A stretch of DNA of 64,000 bases from Candidatus Latescibacterota bacterium. GTDB taxonomy: Bacteria > Latescibacterota > UBA2968. The DNA is taken from the NCBI GenBank assembly GCA_965205975.1, contig OZ242195.1:288001-352000 (forward strand), given 5' to 3'. This document shows, one piece after another, positions 3-6,919 of this stretch. The notes below the pieces were generated by a model that ran no database searches, was not told where the DNA came from, and saw only the letters and a list, made by a program, of their open reading frames with translations. Every line of letters begins with the position of its first letter. Within the stretch, counting starts at the first letter, position 1. The translations under genes and the position numbers were made by a program.

Positions 3-746
3 CGCAAGCTGTGTGACAGTGCTGAGATTGGGATTGGTAGTGTGGATTGGGGGGCAGGGGGTGGATTGTTGAGTAAAGATGATGGTGCGCGAGAAGAAGC
101 TGTGTCCGCGATGAAAGCGCGCATTCAGGCGGTTGGCGCATACGGTTCAGGGGTGATTTTTTTGTGTTTGGCTCCCGATGATCGATTGCAGGCGCGGGCT
201 GAGACATTTGAGGTGTTCAAGCAGGTCTATCCAGAGATTGTGGAAGAGGCCGAAGCGCACGAGGTTTTTCTCGCCATTGAACCCTGGCCCGGTCCGGCAC
301 CTGCATACCCGAATTTGGGCTGTACGCCCGAAACCTTGCGAGCGGTGTTTGAGGTTGTTCCGTCACCTAATCTGGGTATTTGTTACGATCCGTCGCATTT
401 TGCGCGTATCGGGGTTGATTACAAGCGGTTGCTGATGGAGTTTGGCAATCGGGTGCGGCATGTGCATGCAAAGGATACCGAGTTATTGGCCGATGGACTG
501 TATGAGTTTGGCTGCCTGGGTCAATCTTTTGGACAGCGCTATGGTTATGGCGAGGGGTGGTGGCGTTACTGTATTCCCGGATGGGGTGTGGTGGATTGGA
601 AATGGGTGATTGCGCGTCTGGAGGAATTGGGCTACGACGGACCGCTGGCTATTGAATTGGAAGACCACCGCTATAGCGGCAGTGCCGAAAAGAATGCAGC
701 GGGTATTTTGGCTGCGAAAAATTATCTCGAAGATATTTTGGGATAA
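3..746 (+). CDS. Sugar phosphate isomerase/epimerase (xylose isomerase-like TIM barrel), 5' truncated by the window edge
   Basis: The frame is open from position 3. Family motifs: LAIEPW, ICYDPSH, HVHAKD, PGWGVVDW, IELED (E/D/H/E metal ligands). Confidence 0.85.
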   Translation, partial: RKLCDSAEIGIGSVDWGAGGGLLSKDDGAREEAVSAMKARIQAVGAYGSGVIFLCLAPDDRLQARAETFEVFKQVYPEIVEEAEAHEVFLAIEPWPGPAPAYPNLGCTPETLRAVFEVVPSPNLGICYDPSHFARIGVDYKRLLMEFGNRVRHVHAKDTELLADGLYEFGCLGQSFGQRYGYGEGWWRYCIPGWGVVDWKWVIARLEELGYDGPLAIELEDHRYSGSAEKNAAGILAAKNYLEDILG

Positions 747-832: not shown

Positions 833-879
833 AAAAATCGCTCGTGTGTCGTACACTTTATCCCGATACTAAGCAAGAC

Positions 880-914
880 AAAATCCCCACAAGCAGTTTA
901 TTGTGGGGATTTTA
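880..914. terminator. Bidirectional intrinsic terminator between convergent genes
   Basis: Perfect 13-bp stem AAAATCCCCACAA / TTGTGGGGATTTT with an 8-nt loop and A/T tracts on both sides. Confidence 0.75.
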
Positions 915-963
915 TCATGTGTGTCAAACAGCTCGCGACCCTAGCTTTAAAGGCATTATATTT

Positions 964-2373
964 TCATAATTTCTTTAATTCCTGTTCGAGGTTCTCCACT
1001 GCTTCTATTGCCTTGGAAATCTCTTTTTTAATGATGTTGACAATAGTAGCATGGCTTAGCGGGTTCAGGATAATTTTGCGGTACAGTTCAATCTCGTTAA
1101 TGAGAGAGCTTTGTAAAAAGGCTCCACTTTTTATAGCTGTCCAGAAATCTTCGCTTGACAATTTTTGGGGATCTTCGGAGTAGCGGACAGGGAGTCCCTT
1201 TGTGTCGCAAAATTTCTTGATTATCTCTTCAAAAGCAGTGCGAAGATAAATTGCACAGGCTTTGTAGTCGTTGGCTGCAAAATACTCCTTCGCCTTTTCA
1301 AGATACGCTCGATTTTCTACATAGACCGGAATTTCGTTTTTTGAAGTTTTGCTAAAGTAAAATTCAGCGTATTTCCATTTTCTTTCTTCCGTCCGTTGCC
1401 TGACAATTTCATACCAGATGCGATCATAGGTCAGGAAGAATATCTGATAATCTGAGAAGTATTCTTCTAAAATGTCGATCATCGGCAGGCGGTTTGACAT
1501 GTCCAGGCCGATTAGCACATCATCTAATGCCAGAATTTTTAGAGTGCTTTCTGGCTGAATCAGAATTGATGAAAGGTAGATCGCAATAGCAATCGAGGAC
1601 AATTTTGCTTCATTCAAGAAACGGTGATGCGAAGAGATGTCTCTGGCGAAGAACTTGACCTTCAAGAGTATTTGCTCACCATCAAGCACCTTGTTGTCGC
1701 GGTTATATGTGATACCCTGAAAGTCGAACTCGATGACAACATCGTCCCCAAATTTTTCGAGGATTTCAGATGTCTTCGTTTGCAATTCTGTTAATCTGTC
1801 TGCTAATTCGAGGTTAAAATTCTCTATCTGTTCTTCGAGAATTGCAATTTTATTTGTCGCGTTTCGGCGTGGAAATGGTGGCTGAATGTCTTCCCACTCG
1901 TCGGCAAGGCTTCGACCTGTTAGAGCACTAACGGTATTTGCCAGGAGATTCTTAACCAGCAAATCGAAAACATTTACAATACCACTTTCTCGATGGACAT
2001 GGTGTGTCTCCAGAAGTGCCTTATAGTCGAGGAAGCCCTTTGACTTTGATGCTTCAATAAACAGAGGATCATTTGTCTCTTTAACGCTCTGTGACCATTC
2101 GTAGATTTGTTCATTTGATCGTCGGTGAGTGCGGAGATGCAGTTTGACGTAGCCAGCATCCGCAGTAAAGATGTTCTGATAGTTTTCAAATTGGTACGAA
2201 TCATCCTCACTTGATTCAAGAAAGTATTTTAACGCGAGATACAGCGATGATTTTCCACTTCCATTTTCGCCATAGATCAGCAGATTTTTTCCTGCTCGAT
2301 GCAGATTGATTTGATATGGCGGCCCATAAAAAGCCCTAAAATTTTTTATTTCGATTTTGGTAATTCTCACCAC
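964..2373 (-). CDS. ABC-type (SMC/RloC-like) ATPase with a putative C-terminal HEPN-like RNase domain
   Basis: N-terminal IKNFRAF, Walker A GENGSGKSS, short coiled coil, signature-like FLNEAK, Walker B LALDDVLIGLD, switch LTYD. C-terminal LRTAFE...RKIILNPLSH. The start may be 2370 (GTGA overlap with the upstream stop). Confidence 0.8.
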   Translation of the reverse strand: MVRITKIEIKNFRAFYGPPYQINLHRAGKNLLIYGENGSGKSSLYLALKYFLESSEDDSYQFENYQNIFTADAGYVKLHLRTHRRSNEQIYEWSQSVKETNDPLFIEASKSKGFLDYKALLETHHVHRESGIVNVFDLLVKNLLANTVSALTGRSLADEWEDIQPPFPRRNATNKIAILEEQIENFNLELADRLTELQTKTSEILEKFGDDVVIEFDFQGITYNRDNKVLDGEQILLKVKFFARDISSHHRFLNEAKLSSIAIAIYLSSILIQPESTLKILALDDVLIGLDMSNRLPMIDILEEYFSDYQIFFLTYDRIWYEIVRQRTEERKWKYAEFYFSKTSKNEIPVYVENRAYLEKAKEYFAANDYKACAIYLRTAFEEIIKKFCDTKGLPVRYSEDPQKLSSEDFWTAIKSGAFLQSSLINEIELYRKIILNPLSHATIVNIIKKEISKAIEAVENLEQELKKL

Positions 2374-4991
2374 TTGCCCTCAATGATGCGGATAGGTTTT
2401 AAGCTATCGAGAAAGAAAAGATTTTTCCGGACAGGATGCGTTCTGTCATACAGGTGCTCGAAGATGTCTCGGAACGCAGATATTTTATCATCCGAAATCT
2501 CTTCAAGTTGTGGGAAGTGTTCGTCTAACAGCGGTTTGAAGAAGTATTTGTCGCCTTGATGAAGTACGTCGGGTAGATAGCACTCATAGACCAATCCGTC
2601 AATGATTCGCTCAAAATATTTGAGCATCATGTAATCGCGAGCATGTGCCAAATTTTGGCTATTTGTCATTGGCTGTTTCTGGAGGTATATGAGATAATTG
2701 ACGATTTTGCCGATCAGTGCCTTTTGAGTTGAGGTGACATTGGGGATAGGGATCTGCTGCATATAACCACTGAGTGCGCGAAGTTCATCGGCTGTTAATT
2801 GGTCTGATACCTGTGAATAAAACCATTCCACAACGCTGGAATTGAGGATACCGCATAACCATGTTTCCTCAGTCGGGATAAGGTAGCAGGTATCCCCGCA
2901 GTAAAGACCATCTTCATCTACAGCGAAAGTTTGGTGGTTATAGCGGTTTGGACAGACCAGCTTTGGTCGCGTAAAATACTCAGAATCACCAGGGACTGCC
3001 TGTAGCTCGTACCATTCCTGTTTCCCCGCCCTTTTGCACAGGGAATCCCTGTATTTTTTCAGGTGTTTCAGAATTGCCGGATAAGCGTCTATTTCTATTC
3101 CGTGGTAGGCAAAGATCAACCACAAATTCTGTGCATCTACCTGCCAGCGACTTATATCCCGTCCGCGCAAAAATGGCTTCAAAATGTCAGCAGATAAAGG
3201 ATGCTCGGCAATGAGTTTATCCCGCGTTTTTCTATCTACCACAAACGCATCGTCCATACCTGTCTTGATACCGAAATGAGATGGTATATTGACATATTGT
3301 CCTAACGGTATTCCTGTGTTGCGAAGTTCCTCGAGTAAATTCACTACATCAGGTGATTTAGGAAGCGTGGCGTCCGCACTTAAAACTTCTTTATTTTGTG
3401 AGGGAAGGTTCAGTTCAGACGAATATTGGCCTTGGCGAGGAGAGGGCTGTTGTATCAAGTCTTTTTGCATCTTGGGAAAACGGCTCCGTCGCCGTTGCGT
3501 TAGCATCGCCGCAATGTTTTCTGGCAACTGCAAACCATGTCTGCGTTCAAAAGCCTCAACATTTTTGTAATCGTTGCGAAATGCCGCGATAATATCCTCT
3601 CCTATGCTCTTGGCAACTGTCAGATCTGATCTGGCTTCTCGCCAATTTTGCAAGTGCAGCCAACACATACCACGACTGAAATAGGCTAAGGCAAGTCCTG
3701 GGTTCAGGTCTATTGACTTATTGAAGTCTGCGATGGCACGGTCAACCTCGCCTTTGTTGTGGTAAGTAGTACCGCGATTGTGATAGGCTAAGGCAAGTCC
3801 TGGGTTCAGGTCTATTGACTTACTGAAGTCTGCGATGGCAGGGTCATGTTCGCCTTTGTCACCGTAAGCAATGCCGCGATTATTATAGGCTTCGGCAAGC
3901 TCTGGATTCAGTTCTATCGCCTTGTTGTAATCTGCAATGGCCTGATCATACGAGCCTTTGCGATGGTAAGCAATGCCGCGATTGCAATAGGCCCTGGCAT
4001 TATCTGGGTTAAGTTCTATCGCCTTGTTGTAATCTGCAATGGCACGGTTATATACGCCTTTGTCGCTGTAAATATTTCCGCGATTGTAATAAGCACCTGT
4101 GTAATCCGATTGCAAATCTATCGCCTTGCCATAGTCTGAGATAGCACGGTCATGTTCACCTTTGTCACCGTAAGCATTGCCACGATTGTTATAAGCTTCG
4201 GCGTAATTCGGTTTCAGTCGTATCGCCTCGCTGTAGTCTGAGATAGCGTGGTCATACTTATCTTTGCGGTGGTAAGCAATGCCGCGATTGTAATAGGCGC
4301 CGGCAAATTCTGGGTTAAGTTCTATCGATTTGTCCAAGTCTGAAATAGCACGGCCAATCTCACCTTCGCTGAAGTAAGAAGTCCCCCGATTGTTATAGGC
4401 ATCGGCATAGCGCGGCTTGAGCTCAATCGCATGTGAGTAGGCTTCTTCCGCCTTGTCGATTTGCCCTAATATCATTAGAAAGTTACCCTGTTGTAGTGCC
4501 AAATAAGCCAGTATTTCTATTTCTTCATCTGTTATACGAGATACGGGTTTTACATGAGATTGTGTTTCATCAACAATTTTTCGGAGACCTGCTACCACAT
4601 TTTGCCAGCCTTTATTCTCAGGTTGCCATTCGTTAATAGGCTTGCCTTTAGCAGGTAGAGCTTGAATGTCGCTGAGTTGATGATTTAGCCAATCGCAATC
4701 CTCAAGAATAACGGGAATGACTCTCATCTCTCCGCTTAATGCTTCTGCCAATTCCTTATTGCAGTTTGTAGAGGCAAGACTTGAAGCGGAGACGAGGTAG
4801 AGTAGAATGTCCGAATCGGCAAGATTTTTAGAAATGTCTTTATACCACTTGTCGCCTGGGAGGATTTCGTTATCATGCCAAATTGTTATCATGCCTTGTT
4901 GTACCATTACATCAAGACACTTTTTCAATTTGTCCTTTAAATCTGTATCCTCATGCGAATAAGTAATAAATACTTTTAGTGATTCGCCCAT
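2367..4991 (-). CDS. TIR domain + 9 TPR repeats + TaqI_C-like type IIG R-M target-recognition domain fusion
   Basis: TIR: KVFITYSHED...WHD..ILPGDKW...LVSASSLASTNCNKELAEAL. 34-aa AY(N/Y)NRG...AIxD(Y/F)xKAIELNP repeats. C-terminal GIKTG..AFVVD, LKPFLRGRDISRW, YPAILKHL, WYELQ, LCGILNS, MQQIPIP are typical of Eco57I/TaqI-like specificity domains. Confidence 0.85.
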   Translation of the reverse strand: MGESLKVFITYSHEDTDLKDKLKKCLDVMVQQGMITIWHDNEILPGDKWYKDISKNLADSDILLYLVSASSLASTNCNKELAEALSGEMRVIPVILEDCDWLNHQLSDIQALPAKGKPINEWQPENKGWQNVVAGLRKIVDETQSHVKPVSRITDEEIEILAYLALQQGNFLMILGQIDKAEEAYSHAIELKPRYADAYNNRGTSYFSEGEIGRAISDLDKSIELNPEFAGAYYNRGIAYHRKDKYDHAISDYSEAIRLKPNYAEAYNNRGNAYGDKGEHDRAISDYGKAIDLQSDYTGAYYNRGNIYSDKGVYNRAIADYNKAIELNPDNARAYCNRGIAYHRKGSYDQAIADYNKAIELNPELAEAYNNRGIAYGDKGEHDPAIADFSKSIDLNPGLALAYHNRGTTYHNKGEVDRAIADFNKSIDLNPGLALAYFSRGMCWLHLQNWREARSDLTVAKSIGEDIIAAFRNDYKNVEAFERRHGLQLPENIAAMLTQRRRSRFPKMQKDLIQQPSPRQGQYSSELNLPSQNKEVLSADATLPKSPDVVNLLEELRNTGIPLGQYVNIPSHFGIKTGMDDAFVVDRKTRDKLIAEHPLSADILKPFLRGRDISRWQVDAQNLWLIFAYHGIEIDAYPAILKHLKKYRDSLCKRAGKQEWYELQAVPGDSEYFTRPKLVCPNRYNHQTFAVDEDGLYCGDTCYLIPTEETWLCGILNSSVVEWFYSQVSDQLTADELRALSGYMQQIPIPNVTSTQKALIGKIVNYLIYLQKQPMTNSQNLAHARDYMMLKYFERIIDGLVYECYLPDVLHQGDKYFFKPLLDEHFPQLEEISDDKISAFRDIFEHLYDRTHPVRKNLFFLDSLKPIRIIEGKW
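3590..4505 (-). repeat. TPR-coding tandem array with a 102-bp period
   Basis: 3681-3738 vs 3783-3840 match at 57/58 nt. 3910-3941 and 4012-4043 are identical over 32 nt. Both offsets are 102 bp. Confidence 0.9.
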
Positions 4992-5094
4992 TTTCTTTTC
5001 TCCACGGTCAGGGTCAGGATGACTGACATTGTACTGCGCGTGTTCAGGATTTTGGGCTTTTCAAGATTCTATCCTTACATCTATAATACCTGAT

Positions 5095-5982
5095 TTACCC
5101 CGATAATGCGCGTTGCATTGTTGCGCCCATTTCAGCGGGGCTTTCGCATACGTGAATGCCGGCTTCTCGAAGCGCGGCCATTTTGTCGGCGGCGGTGCCC
5201 TGTCCGCCGGAGATAATTGCGCCCGCATGCCCCATGCGTCGCCCCGGGGGCGCTGTTTGACCCGCGATAAAACTGACTACGGGTTTGCCAAAGTGCGCTT
5301 TGACATAAGCGGCGGCTTCTTCTTCGGCGGTGCCGCCAATTTCCCCGATCATGATGACGGCATCTGTGTCGGGGTCGTCCTTGAAGAGCGCGAGGCAGTC
5401 TGTAAAGGTCGTGCCGATGATGGGGTCTCCGCCGATGCCCACACACGACGATTGACCAAAGCCACTATCGGTGAGTTGCGAGACCGCTTCATAGGTGAGC
5501 GTGCCGCTGCGCGAAATGACGCCAATGCGACCTTCGCGATGAATCGCGCCTGGCATAATGCCGATTTTGCACTTGCCCGGAGAAATCAGGCCCGGACAAT
5601 TGGGGCCGATCAAGCGCGTGTTTTTATCGGCCAGATAGTGTTTGGCTTTTAGCATGTCGAGGACGGGTATGTTCTCAGAGATGCACACGACCAGGGGGAG
5701 GTCTGCATCGGCCGCTTCCATGATGGTGTCGGCTGCAAAGGGCGCGGGAACAAAATTGGCCGATGCCGTGGCACCTGTTTGTTCTACGGCATCGGATACA
5801 GTATCAAAAACGGGTATGCCATCCACGCTCTCGCCGCTTTTACCGGCGTTGACCACGCCGACGACTTGCGTGCCGTATTCGACCATTTGTTCCAGATGAA
5901 ATCGCGCTTCGCCACCCATTGCTCTGCTGCTGGAAAAGCTCTGGACGATCACGCGGGTGTTGCTGTCAATGAGGATGCTCAT
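5095..5982 (-). CDS. sucD: Succinyl-CoA synthetase alpha subunit
   Basis: [28 protein letters not shown] and the phospho-His motif MGHAGA. Confidence 0.95.
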
Positions 5983-6067: not shown

Positions 6068-6754
6068 CTATTCGCGCTTCTTTGTTCGTTCTTCGATTGT
6101 GCCATCTGTTTTGCCGATGATGATGCGATCCGTCAGGCCAATAAAAAGACCGCATTCGACCACGCCGCACAAGGCGTTGATTTTTGCTTCGAGCGCGGGC
6201 GGGTCGTCAATGCGACCAAAATCGCAATCGATGATATAATTGCCGTTGTCTGTGACAAAAGGCGTGTTGTCCTGCGCGTTGCGAAGCGTGGGATGACAGC
6301 CCAGGTCTGCGAGCAGGCGTTGTATGGCTTGCCAGCCAAAGGGAATGACTTCAACGGGCAAGGGGAAAGCCCCGAGGTGCGCCACTGGTTTGGATTCGTC
6401 GGCGACGATGATTTCTCTGTCGGATAGAGAGGCAACGATTTTTTCTCGCAAAAGCGCGCCGCCGCCACCTTTTATGAGGTTAAAGTCCGGGTCAAATTCA
6501 TCCGCGCCGTCAATGGTCAGATCAATGCGGGTAACTTTGCCGAAGTCGATGAGTGGAATATTTTCAGATTCCGCCTGAATGCGCGATTGCTCTGAGGTGG
6601 GTATGCCGCATATATCGAGTCCTTCCGCGATGCGCTGGCCGAGCTTTTGAATTGCAAAAAAAGCAGTTGATCCCGTGCCCAGACCGACGACCATGCCATC
6701 TTCGACATATTCGGCAGCTCGTTCTCCTGATAGTTGCTTGGGGTTAATTGTCAT
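6068..6754 (-). CDS. rpiA: Ribose-5-phosphate isomerase A
   Basis: GLGTGST, IDGADE, KGGGGALLREK, PVEV, TDNGN. Start set at ATG 6754 (alternative 6772). Confidence 0.95.
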   Translation of the reverse strand: MTINPKQLSGERAAEYVEDGMVVGLGTGSTAFFAIQKLGQRIAEGLDICGIPTSEQSRIQAESENIPLIDFGKVTRIDLTIDGADEFDPDFNLIKGGGGALLREKIVASLSDREIIVADESKPVAHLGAFPLPVEVIPFGWQAIQRLLADLGCHPTLRNAQDNTPFVTDNGNYIIDCDFGRIDDPPALEAKINALCGVVECGLFIGLTDRIIIGKTDGTIEERTKKRE

Positions 6755-6919
6755 ATCTGTTCCATCCTTCATAATAAAAACAAGCAGAAGATAAACGGAA
6801 GATAGTGATTTGGCAATGATTTTGACTCAGACAGGCACGGTATTTTTCTATTTATTTTTTTTAAAAATTGTCATACTCTATCAAATGGGTGGACACTGTG
6901 ATTAAATTCGGAGAGAAAT

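Follow-up and report, generated by a model that had tools for sequence, protein, structure and literature searches.

A TIR-TPR-TRD protein paired with an ABC ATPase-HEPN protein in Latescibacterota: a candidate defence cassette related to restriction systems

What might a protein that combines a TIR domain, tetratricopeptide repeats (TPRs) and the target-recognition domain (TRD) of a type IIG-like restriction enzyme do together with an ABC ATPase? This question is raised by two overlapping genes in a 64,000-nucleotide stretch of a Latescibacterota genome (contig OZ242195.1, positions 288,001 to 352,000; assembly GCA_965205975.1), which is referred to below as the window. Gene 1 encodes the TIR-TPR-TRD protein, which ends in a conserved tail, and gene 2 encodes an ATPase with a C-terminal HEPN-like domain (Table 1). 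An earlier reading of this DNA, made from the letters alone and called here the sequence-only reading, had put the pair forward as a new anti-phage system. The present analyses confirm what that reading observed and partly support what it made of it. We consider it reasonably probable that the two genes form a defence cassette of the abortive-infection type, which descends from an ABC-HEPN system linked to restriction. Judging by sequence comparisons, it is a derived form of a large helicase/type IIG-like methylase/ABC-HEPN family and not an isolated invention. The same comparisons strongly support the view that the TRD and the tail together are the standing partner of the ATPase, and that in this lineage the part upstream of them has been swapped for TIR plus TPR (in some relatives for FRG plus TPR or for nothing), with loss of the helicase.

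Domain architecture of the two proteins

Gene 1 had been described as a TIR protein with the usual Glu, nine TPRs and a type IIG TRD but no methylase motifs, and on these points Pfam, PADLOC and regular-expression searches agree. The best PADLOC match of the TIR domain was a ThsB-type TIR model (E 5.2e-28), and E80, which stands in the motif NCNKEL, was invariant in all 14 aligned TIRs of the gene 1 family. We take E80 to be the counterpart of the catalytic Glu on the alpha-C helix of characterised TIRs, an assignment made by motif position. The repeats were matched by TPR_1 over eight scored stretches (E 5.7e-78); since a regular expression found eight AYxNRG units with an exact period of 34 residues (198...436) and one degenerate unit in front of them, the array was counted as nine TPRs. 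The lengths of gene 1 homologs, which range from 481 to 1154 amino acids, suggest that the number of repeats varies, and such widely varying TPR numbers resemble those of repeat-based sensors. The C-terminal part matched TaqI_C over the full model length (1-118), in agreement with the type IIG assignment made earlier, and PADLOC aligned amino acids 537-781 to the end only of its type IIG model (855-1112 of 1148, E 2.8e-27). Neither of the methylase motifs [ND]PP[YFW] and FxGxG was found in gene 1 by regular expression, and no Eco57I or N6_Mtase Pfam match appeared among the matches listed for it (the best 25 of 30 families).

The description of gene 2 as an ABC ATPase with a HEPN-like tail was likewise borne out. 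Pfam placed SMC_N over amino acids 4-319 (E 4.8e-13) and also matched AAA_23 and AAA_15, and the gene 2 family profile matched the head of Rad50 (positions 1-314, E 1.6e-15). Conservation was assessed in a 50-member family alignment with identities of 32-64%, in which the Walker A segment G35-K41, N254/E255, the Walker B residues D284/D285, Q310 and T315 were invariant. The Walker A, signature-like, Walker B and Q-loop motifs were all present together with the head fold, as expected of a Rad50/SMC-like ABC protein. The AlphaFold2 model of gene 2 had a mean confidence (pLDDT) of 91.3. Because a Foldseek search with the whole model returned SMC/Rad50 heads only (E about 1e-11) and was uninformative on the tail, the helical tail of about 115 amino acids was modelled alone, which gave a pLDDT of 87.2. 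In VIA-align, HEPN domains or HEPN-bearing proteins accounted for 11 of the top 12 matches of this model, with Z-scores of 12.4 to 9.1 (2hsb with 12.4, then 11.4 and 10.9), although for helical bundles a Z-score below about 13 may reflect a common arrangement alone. Foldseek gave TM-scores of 0.60-0.65 to TM0613, AF_0298, SsR10 and HepT-type toxins. The tail is thus predicted by modelling to be a four-helix HEPN fold. DUF4145, which belongs to the HEPN clan according to excerpts from PMC3710099, was matched by 7 of the 50 family members (best E 0.0014). Within the tail, R378, E382 and H441 were invariant in all 50 members. A protein atlas search with the tail returned unnamed clusters only (best score 0.93), one of which (0.83) had AAA_13 on 10% of its members, and this search was not used.

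An ABC ATPase with a HEPN domain in cis calls to mind PrrC, and the analogy drawn with it by the sequence-only reading proved apt. As described in excerpts from PMC1484252, PrrC joins an ABC NTPase to a HEPN-type anticodon nuclease, whose catalysis needs R320, E324 and probably H356. The type Ic enzyme EcoprrI holds PrrC in a latent state, from which PrrC is freed when the phage T4 protein Stp inhibits EcoprrI (PMC1484252, PMC3710099). That an ABC-HEPN protein can guard a restriction system is thus a known principle, and the latency of the RNase is proposed to come from its binding to the machinery that recognises DNA (PMC3710099). Gene 2 resembles PrrC in having an N-terminal Rad50/SMC-like ABC NTPase and a C-terminal HEPN domain that is a putative RNase, in the pattern Arg-x3-Glu...His (R378/E382/H441 in gene 2 and R320/E324/H356 in PrrC), and in its location within or beside restriction-modification genes, which for the relatives of gene 2 are a helicase and a methylase and for the present copy a TRD-tail remnant only. 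It differs from PrrC in that its partner is a single protein with a TaqI_C TRD and a tail, and not HsdM/S/R, that the partner in the window is without methylase or nuclease and carries a TIR domain and TPRs instead, and that the Glu and His are spaced by 59 amino acids compared to 32 in PrrC.

The ThsB-type TIR also allows a different division of labour, in which the TIR domain, like ThsB of Thoeris, would produce a nucleotide signal, the effector would be encoded elsewhere, and the HEPN domain would be regulatory or RNA-binding. Apart from the ThsB model being the best PADLOC match of the TIR domain, this explanation could draw on the HEPN tail, in which no canonical Rx4-6H motif was found by regular expression (amino acids 340-469). 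However, the two-gene insertion contains no ThsA-like or other signal-binding effector, the invariance of R378, E382 and H441 is what would be expected of a catalytic site, and the core pair of TRD-tail protein and ATPase exists without a TIR domain. We therefore regard a signal-generating TIR with a distant effector as improbable.

Relatives of the pair and its conserved tail

The ATPase belongs to a large family. Among 8000 scored candidates, 3819 matched gene 2 at E<=1e-3, and in a library clustered at 50% identity the matches numbered 2742 at E<=1e-3, 1320 at E<=1e-10 and 554 at E<=1e-30. The C-terminal 395 amino acids of gene 1 had 977 homologs at E<=1e-3. The sequence-only reading had allowed that the architecture might occur in this contig alone, but it was found in many contigs: TRD and tail were present in each of the 120 nearest homologs and the TIR domain in 89 of them, the remainder beginning with TPRs, with an FRG domain or with a short N-terminus of unknown kind. 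A search of the phage collection for ATPase relatives found none at E<=1e-6.

The named closest relatives come from metagenome-assembled genomes (MAGs) of Latescibacterota and Poribacteria, where the TIR-TPR-TRD fusion occurs at ATPase identities of 62-88%, and two ATPase relatives have source names from Gemmatimonadota and Poribacteria. The relatives thus belong to sponge-symbiont phyla, in which TPR proteins and further repeat proteins of a eukaryote-like kind abound, and bacterial TIR proteins can interfere with host Toll-like receptor signalling. With such closest relatives, the TIR-TPR protein might act on the TIR signalling of an animal host and not on phage. This is very unlikely in our view: the TIR-TPR part is fused to the TRD of a restriction enzyme, it is coupled to a PrrC-like ATPase-RNase that is its predicted binding partner, the ATPase family sits in restriction operons, and no secretion signal was seen by eye, the N-terminus opening with the TIR strand KVFITYSH.

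Within the phylum, the ATPase was found in 15 of 168 sampled genomes, belonging to 3 of 49 genera. Its distribution within these genera was patchy (5/20, 8/31 and 1/2 genomes, the window's genome excluded), and the window's genome holds a single copy. Wherever the upstream DNA was covered, a gene with TaqI_C stood directly before or beside the ATPase match (14 of 14 genome loci). The partner was a TIR-TPR-TRD-tail protein in seven genomes, was split in two in one (G029, locus L011), and was a protein of 1170-1306 amino acids in seven; it was also split at locus L013. One partner that had appeared to consist of the TRD only, at L006, was ruled out as such when more upstream DNA showed it to be 1170 amino acids long. 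The long partners combine Eco57I, N6_Mtase or MmeI_Mtase with TaqI_C in Pfam, and are thus methylases of 1100-1400 amino acids with an SNF2 helicase gene upstream; at L019 the SNF2 helicase carries an N-terminal PLD nuclease. The pair is a conserved and horizontally moving unit.

The same arrangement was seen in a set of 80 metagenome loci, the ATPases of which are 26-52% identical to gene 2. Of the 67 loci with at least 400 nucleotides of upstream DNA, 47 had an abutting open reading frame that matched a hidden Markov model of the tail, 10 had the tail-bearing gene farther upstream with other genes in between, and 10 had no tail. The last group includes Mza-like loci (Z1, AIPR, HATPase_c_3) and loci in which the ATPase is paired with a GmrSD_N protein of about 1000 amino acids. 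The genes that lie between the tail-bearing methylase and the ATPase encode McrBC, GmrSD-HNH, Schlafen, RhuM, and a reverse transcriptase with ABC-3C components. The embedded sets (L027, L029, L030, L032, L041, L052 and L084) comprise RhuM; Schlafen with AAA_5 and McrBC; GmrSD_N-HNH; and a reverse transcriptase with ABC-3C CTD12 and DUF2326. Defence genes in this place fit a pattern of 'guilt by embedding'. More distant ATPase relatives, at 27-33% identity, were seen without a tail in two settings, namely in the Mza-like loci L053 and L059 with NOV_C, HATPase_c_3, Z1, an ATPase and AIPR, and directly after the GmrSD_N (DUF262) proteins of about 1000 amino acids (L055, L063, L074, L089 and L099).

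The smallest form of the unit was found on a conjugative Nostoc plasmid (L121, NZ_AP025734.1, 195530-197976), where a protein of 338 amino acids annotated as 'TaqI-like C-terminal specificity domain-containing protein' is encoded by a gene that overlaps the gene of a 477-amino-acid ATPase, 49% identical to gene 2. The core pair of TRD-tail protein and ATPase thus also occurs without any TIR domain. In some relatives, FRG takes the place of TIR on the TPR-TRD-tail protein (L014:4461-7001; L015:1887-3608; P0192 and P0236), and the FRG module matches the PADLOC candidate PDC-S15. At L015 a separate FRG-TPR gene adjoins a TIR-TPR-TRD gene, and in one Poribacteria genome (L018:961-7007) three TIR-TPR genes follow one another, the middle one ending in UPF0175 and the last alone carrying the TRD and the tail.

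In a quick tree of 63 ATPase sequences, midpoint-rooted and with SH-aLRT supports, all TIR-linked ATPases and six methylase-linked ones from Latescibacterota formed one clade (SH-aLRT 98), and this clade, which includes the ATPase of the window, nests among methylase-linked forms. The TIR form may or may not stem from a single origin, as far as this tree goes.

The constant part of the partner is the tail, which in the alignments is its best-conserved part and which the sequence-only reading had overlooked. Tail identity to the window was 59-86% across all aligned partners. The identity of the TRD was 51-91% for the other TIR- or FRG-linked forms, and among the methylase-linked ones it was 36.5% (L006), 18.6% (L005) and 14.6% (L019), with tails within the range given. 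The tail, of about 125 amino acids, is missing from the stand-alone Eco57I-TaqI_C methylases of L015 and L020, whose genes do not precede the ATPase gene directly. At ATPase identities of about 64-65%, the TRDs of TIR-linked forms were about 61% identical where those of methylase-linked forms were 15-19%, in a comparison of few sequences. Such retention would fit a fixed ligand or bait; shared descent in a young clade could also account for it.

The conservation of the tail is matched by the predicted structure of the complex. For the ATPase with amino acids 574-874 of gene 1, three runs gave interface scores (ipSAE) of 0.74, 0.81 and 0.75 (median 0.75), whereas three control complexes gave 0.01, 0.00 and 0.00. 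Of solved complexes, 116 of 157 attain the calibration mark for ipSAE, as do 2 of 215 mismatched pairs; for this pair the counts are only a rough guide, because the alignments used were ones made for this analysis. The complex of the pair, the prediction of which had been suggested by the sequence-only reading, scored well above the best control. The runs shared at least 77% of their contacts, and the pLDDT of the partner was at least 83. The confident contacts fall within the tail, in residues 300-316 and 369-394 of the fragment (about 779-795 and 848-873 of gene 1), and adjoin the near-invariant residues E315, I318, I388, I390 and E392 (fragment numbering). On the side of the ATPase they involve residues 103-110, 148-154, 178-195 and 272-276, including a patch around the near-invariant P274. 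The helical lobe of the ATPase is thereby the predicted docking place of the tail.

Direct binding, as predicted here, between the products of tightly coupled, overlapping genes is also what would be expected of a toxin-antitoxin or addiction module, with the ATPase-HEPN protein as the toxin, the TRD-tail protein as its neutraliser and the stabilisation of a carrier island or plasmid as the main role. The minimal pair on the conjugative Nostoc plasmid fits this idea, and HEPN toxins with protein partners are common according to excerpts from PMC3710099. Nonetheless, an addiction module would leave unexplained both the conserved TIR domain with its intact Glu and nine TPRs, and the regular linkage to a helicase and a methylase with embedded defence genes. 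We consider addiction as the main role unlikely; a toxin-antitoxin role and a role in abortive infection are compatible.

Selection on the pair was estimated with the Nei-Gojobori method as the ratio of nonsynonymous to synonymous substitution rates (dN/dS), in pairwise comparisons with the window, of which one ATPase comparison was saturated. The values were 0.065-0.228 for the ATPase, 0.117-0.239 for the TRD-tail part and 0.179-0.545 for the TIR domain. All are well below 1, which indicates purifying selection that maintains the fusion and disposes of the neutral evolution that had been named earlier as an outcome unfavourable to a defence role. These values bear on the question whether the pair is a decaying remnant, in which a TIR-TPR gene was inserted into the 3' part of a gene for a type IIG-like methylase, or recombined with it, and left an accidental in-frame chimera next to a stranded, functionless ATPase. 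In relatives, the 3' end of the methylase gene is indeed a hotspot of insertion, as the embedded genes show, and the partner gene is split in G029/L011 and at L013. Moreover, the ATPase is a pseudogene in 3 of the 15 carrier genomes: it has one TAG in G019 (L003/L009) and two TAA in G135 (L119-L120/L132), and in G004 (L007/L012) it is truncated at its 5' end with amino acids 165-469 left. A remnant would however not be expected to show the low dN/dS of both the ATPase and the TRD-tail part, catalytic-type residues that are invariant, TRD and tail in 120 of 120 and TIR in 89 of 120 nearest homologs, or the same fusion in MAGs of two phyla. Decay is for these reasons an explanation to which we give little credence.

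Comparison with named systems, proposed mechanism and triggers

The sequence-only reading held that no named system has this architecture. This stands insofar as no PADLOC 2.0.0 system model was found for gene 1 or gene 2, which gave single-domain or P-loop matches only, and no NCBIfam equivalog was found for either gene; it needs to be qualified insofar as the architecture is an offshoot of a large family and not free-standing. In the literature covered, no TIR-TPR-TaqI_C protein was found to be described, nor the pairing of such a protein with an ABC-HEPN protein.

The nearest likeness is to the helicase, type IIG-like methylase and ABC-HEPN triads among the relatives, with which the pair shares the ATPase-HEPN family, the module of TaqI_C and tail, and the overlapping junction. 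The partner in the window differs from that of the triads in being without the Eco57I methylase and the whole N-terminal part of about 900 amino acids, and in carrying the TIR domain and TPRs, which are new there; an SNF2/PLD helicase is also missing. Through these triads the relatives of gene 2 share the functional order of helicase, N6-methylase and ATPase with Hma ('BR type 1'). In Hma, other defence genes are often embedded between the core genes (10.1101/2024.01.29.577857), and HmaC is a DUF499 STAND/AAA+ ATPase (PMC12839542), both as given in excerpts of these sources. Gene 2 is by contrast of the ABC/SMC type and not DUF499, and the window lacks helicase and methylase. The PADLOC model of HmaA matched the L019 helicase over its helicase-C part only (E 4.4e-26), and no Hma ATPase model appeared among the matches listed for gene 2 (the best 25 of 55) or for its L019 relative (the best 25 of 33).

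Likeness to Thoeris is limited to the ThsB-type TIR with its conserved Glu. No ThsA (SIR2 or Macro with SLOG) is present in the cassette, and the TIR domain of gene 1 is fused to TPRs and a TRD and paired with an ABC-HEPN protein. No ThsA gene stands beside gene 1, which belongs to a two-gene insertion with sucD, rpiA and an isomerase gene as its neighbours. PARIS, in which the ABC ATPase AriA and the Toprim nuclease AriB, which cuts tRNA, respond to an anti-restriction protein, the DNA mimic Ocr (PMC12839542, in excerpt), likewise ties an ABC ATPase to a nuclease effector and shares the idea of sensing anti-restriction proteins. Gene 2 differs from it in that the AriA model covers only about the first 66 amino acids (E 3.8e-9), that there is no Toprim partner, and that the ATPase is Rad50/SMC-like with HEPN in cis. 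PADLOC ATPase models in general reached only the P-loop region of gene 2 (AriA 4-69, PtuA 4-104, GajA 4-80 and LmuB 2-83), and partner genes of PARIS, Septu, Gabija or Lamassu were absent from the cassette. Of the models for MADS, which is an operon of eight genes, mad1-8 (10.1101/2023.03.30.534895, in excerpt), mad3 matched the ATPase head weakly (E 1.3e-10) and mad5 marginally (E 0.016), and no other mad gene was found in the cassette.

We propose that the TRD-tail protein would dock on the ATPase-HEPN protein and keep it latent, as EcoprrI does with PrrC. A trigger that acts at the TRD or at the TPR array would alter the state of the ATPase, and ATP-driven engagement of the heads would then pair the HEPN domains into an active RNase that cleaves tRNA or mRNA. 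Engagement of the heads might also cluster the TIR domains and lead to NAD+ hydrolysis or signal synthesis, so that the infected cell stops. The parts of this scheme that have support are the domain identities, the coupling of the genes, the conserved tail and the predicted interface. The sequence-only reading had proposed a decoy or a DNA sensor upstream of NAD+ or tRNA cleavage. The evidence gives no choice between the two kinds of sensor, and either cleavage is something that we infer.

Several triggers can be envisaged, and the following gradings are rough estimates. An anti-restriction protein directed against type IIG-like enzymes, or against a decoy of them, is a tentative candidate, and foreign DNA that carries the recognition site is an equally tentative one. 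A phage protein or other ligand bound by the TPRs is slightly more doubtful than either, and it is rather unlikely that the trigger is of some other kind. A bolder version of the defence reading would make the TRD-tail part an 'integrated decoy'. It would imitate, without any catalytic activity, that portion of a type IIG-like restriction enzyme at which the anti-restriction proteins of phages are aimed, and a PrrC-like ABC ATPase would connect it to two suicide effectors, a TIR NADase and a HEPN RNase; this version is a long shot. If the decoy reading is true, the cell would detect the counter-defence of the phage and not the phage itself, like plant NLR-ID receptors. In two Poribacteria loci, the TIR-TPR-TRD gene is closely preceded by a gene for a stand-alone Eco57I-TaqI_C methylase (L015:38-1750 and L020:13-3619). 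That these methylases share their specificity with the TIR-linked TRD of the same locus was considered and dropped, the TRDs being only 43-48% identical.

A number of observations weigh against a defence cassette built on PrrC-like lines. In gene 2, Walker B has DD in place of DE, and TYD occupies the position of the H-loop; hydrolysis of ATP may for these reasons be slow, or ATP binding may take its place. Besides the missing Rx4-6H motif, R432, eight residues before H441, is merely the majority residue at its position (N437 is near-invariant), and the Z-scores of the HEPN matches all lie in the ambiguous range mentioned above. Matches of the gene 2 family to AAA_13, which we take to be the PrrC/RloC family, were weak (32 of 50 members at E<=0.05, best 1.5e-6), and the likeness to PrrC is one of layout and residue pattern. 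In three of the 15 carrier genomes the ATPase is broken and the partner gene looks intact. The cassette in the window stands alone among housekeeping genes, outside any defence island. Finally, a search of the window's genome for a cognate methylase whose TRD resembles that of gene 1 matched gene 1 alone at E<=0.001 with the query used (nine Eco57I-type matches lie elsewhere in that genome), so a DNA-sensing mode would have no visible way to spare self DNA.

Should the cassette be active, the part of a restriction enzyme that reads DNA would prove reusable: with its dedicated docking tail it would serve as a plug by which different effector heads connect to a PrrC-like ATPase-RNase. On the TRD-tail part, the observed heads comprise a methylase, TIR-TPR and FRG-TPR, and some forms have no head. 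For a single type I system, the 'second-strike' logic of PrrC has been established since the 1990s. Activity of the cassette would extend this logic to a large family without a name (554 ATPase clusters at 50% identity, E<=1e-30) and would link restriction enzymes to TIR-based NAD+ immunity. The two-gene system and the smaller pair of the Nostoc plasmid would then be compact models for the relay from ATPase to RNase and for decoy domains.

Junction, insertion site and neighbouring genes

Table 1. Features of the cassette and its flanks, in coordinates of the window. Amino acid (aa) positions refer to the encoded proteins.
Feature	Position	Strand	Remarks
Sugar-phosphate isomerase-like TIM-barrel gene	3..746	plus	flank
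Terminator hairpin 3' of gene 2	874..910 (hairpin 883-910)	minus	-25.4 kcal/mol, z -7.7, U-rich tail
Inserted low-GC cassette, approximate extent	911..5094		resident terminator to sucD stop; about 4.3 kb
Gene 2	964..2373	minus	469 aa, GTG start (468 aa from GTG 2370); Rad50/SMC-type ABC ATPase head and HEPN
HEPN-fold tail of gene 2 (predicted), aa ~355-469	967..1311	minus	R378, E382, H441 invariant; N437 near-invariant
Stop/start overlap GTGGTGA	2367..2373	minus	suggests translational coupling
Gene 1	2367..4991	minus	874 aa, ATG start; TIR - 9 TPR - linker - TaqI_C TRD - tail
Conserved C-terminal tail, gene 1 aa ~746-874	2370..2756	minus	predicted ATPase docking module
Type IIG-like TRD, gene 1 aa ~537-745	2757..3383	minus	TaqI_C aa 605-749, E 6e-16
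TPR array, gene 1 aa ~164-470	3582..4502	minus	9 repeats of 34 aa
TIR domain, gene 1 aa 7-115	4647..4973	minus	TIR_2 E 5.2e-17; candidate catalytic Glu E80
sucD	5095..5982	minus	flank
rpiA	6068..6772	minus	flank

The two open reading frames and their overlap are as the sequence-only reading had described them. At the junction, which reads ...AAGTGGTGA, gene 1 ends with the TGA at 2369-2367, and gene 2 starts either with GTG 2373, which gives an overlap of 7 nucleotides, or with GTG 2370 (GTGA), which gives one of 4. The start at GTG 2370 yields MRITKIE, the consensus N-terminus of the family. The junction suggests that gene 1 and gene 2 are translationally coupled, and an overlap of 4 or 7 nucleotides recurs in most related loci.

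The neighbours, an isomerase-like gene, sucD and rpiA, are unrelated housekeeping genes, as had been stated, and the G+C content of 0.39-0.48 within the cassette sets it apart from flanks with 0.53-0.57. The same reading had given the pair a terminator of its own. A strong hairpin is indeed present 3' of gene 2; it was found by folding and is absent from the listing of a consensus terminator scan. In genomes with an empty site, however, a homologous hairpin separates sucD from the isomerase gene as a resident terminator that works in both directions, and the cassette therefore landed between sucD and this terminator without bringing its own. Since sucD has no terminator before gene 1 (4992-5094), read-through transcription into gene 1 is possible.

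All 21 genomes of the genus contain sucD. In 14 of them the site is empty, with the isomerase gene about 60-230 nucleotides from the sucD stop, and consists of about 75 nucleotides with one bidirectional terminator hairpin (loci L135-L149). A TIR gene adjoins sucD in four genomes, namely the window's own, G013, G004 and G019, and the remaining three (G006, G001 and G017) have other content beside sucD.

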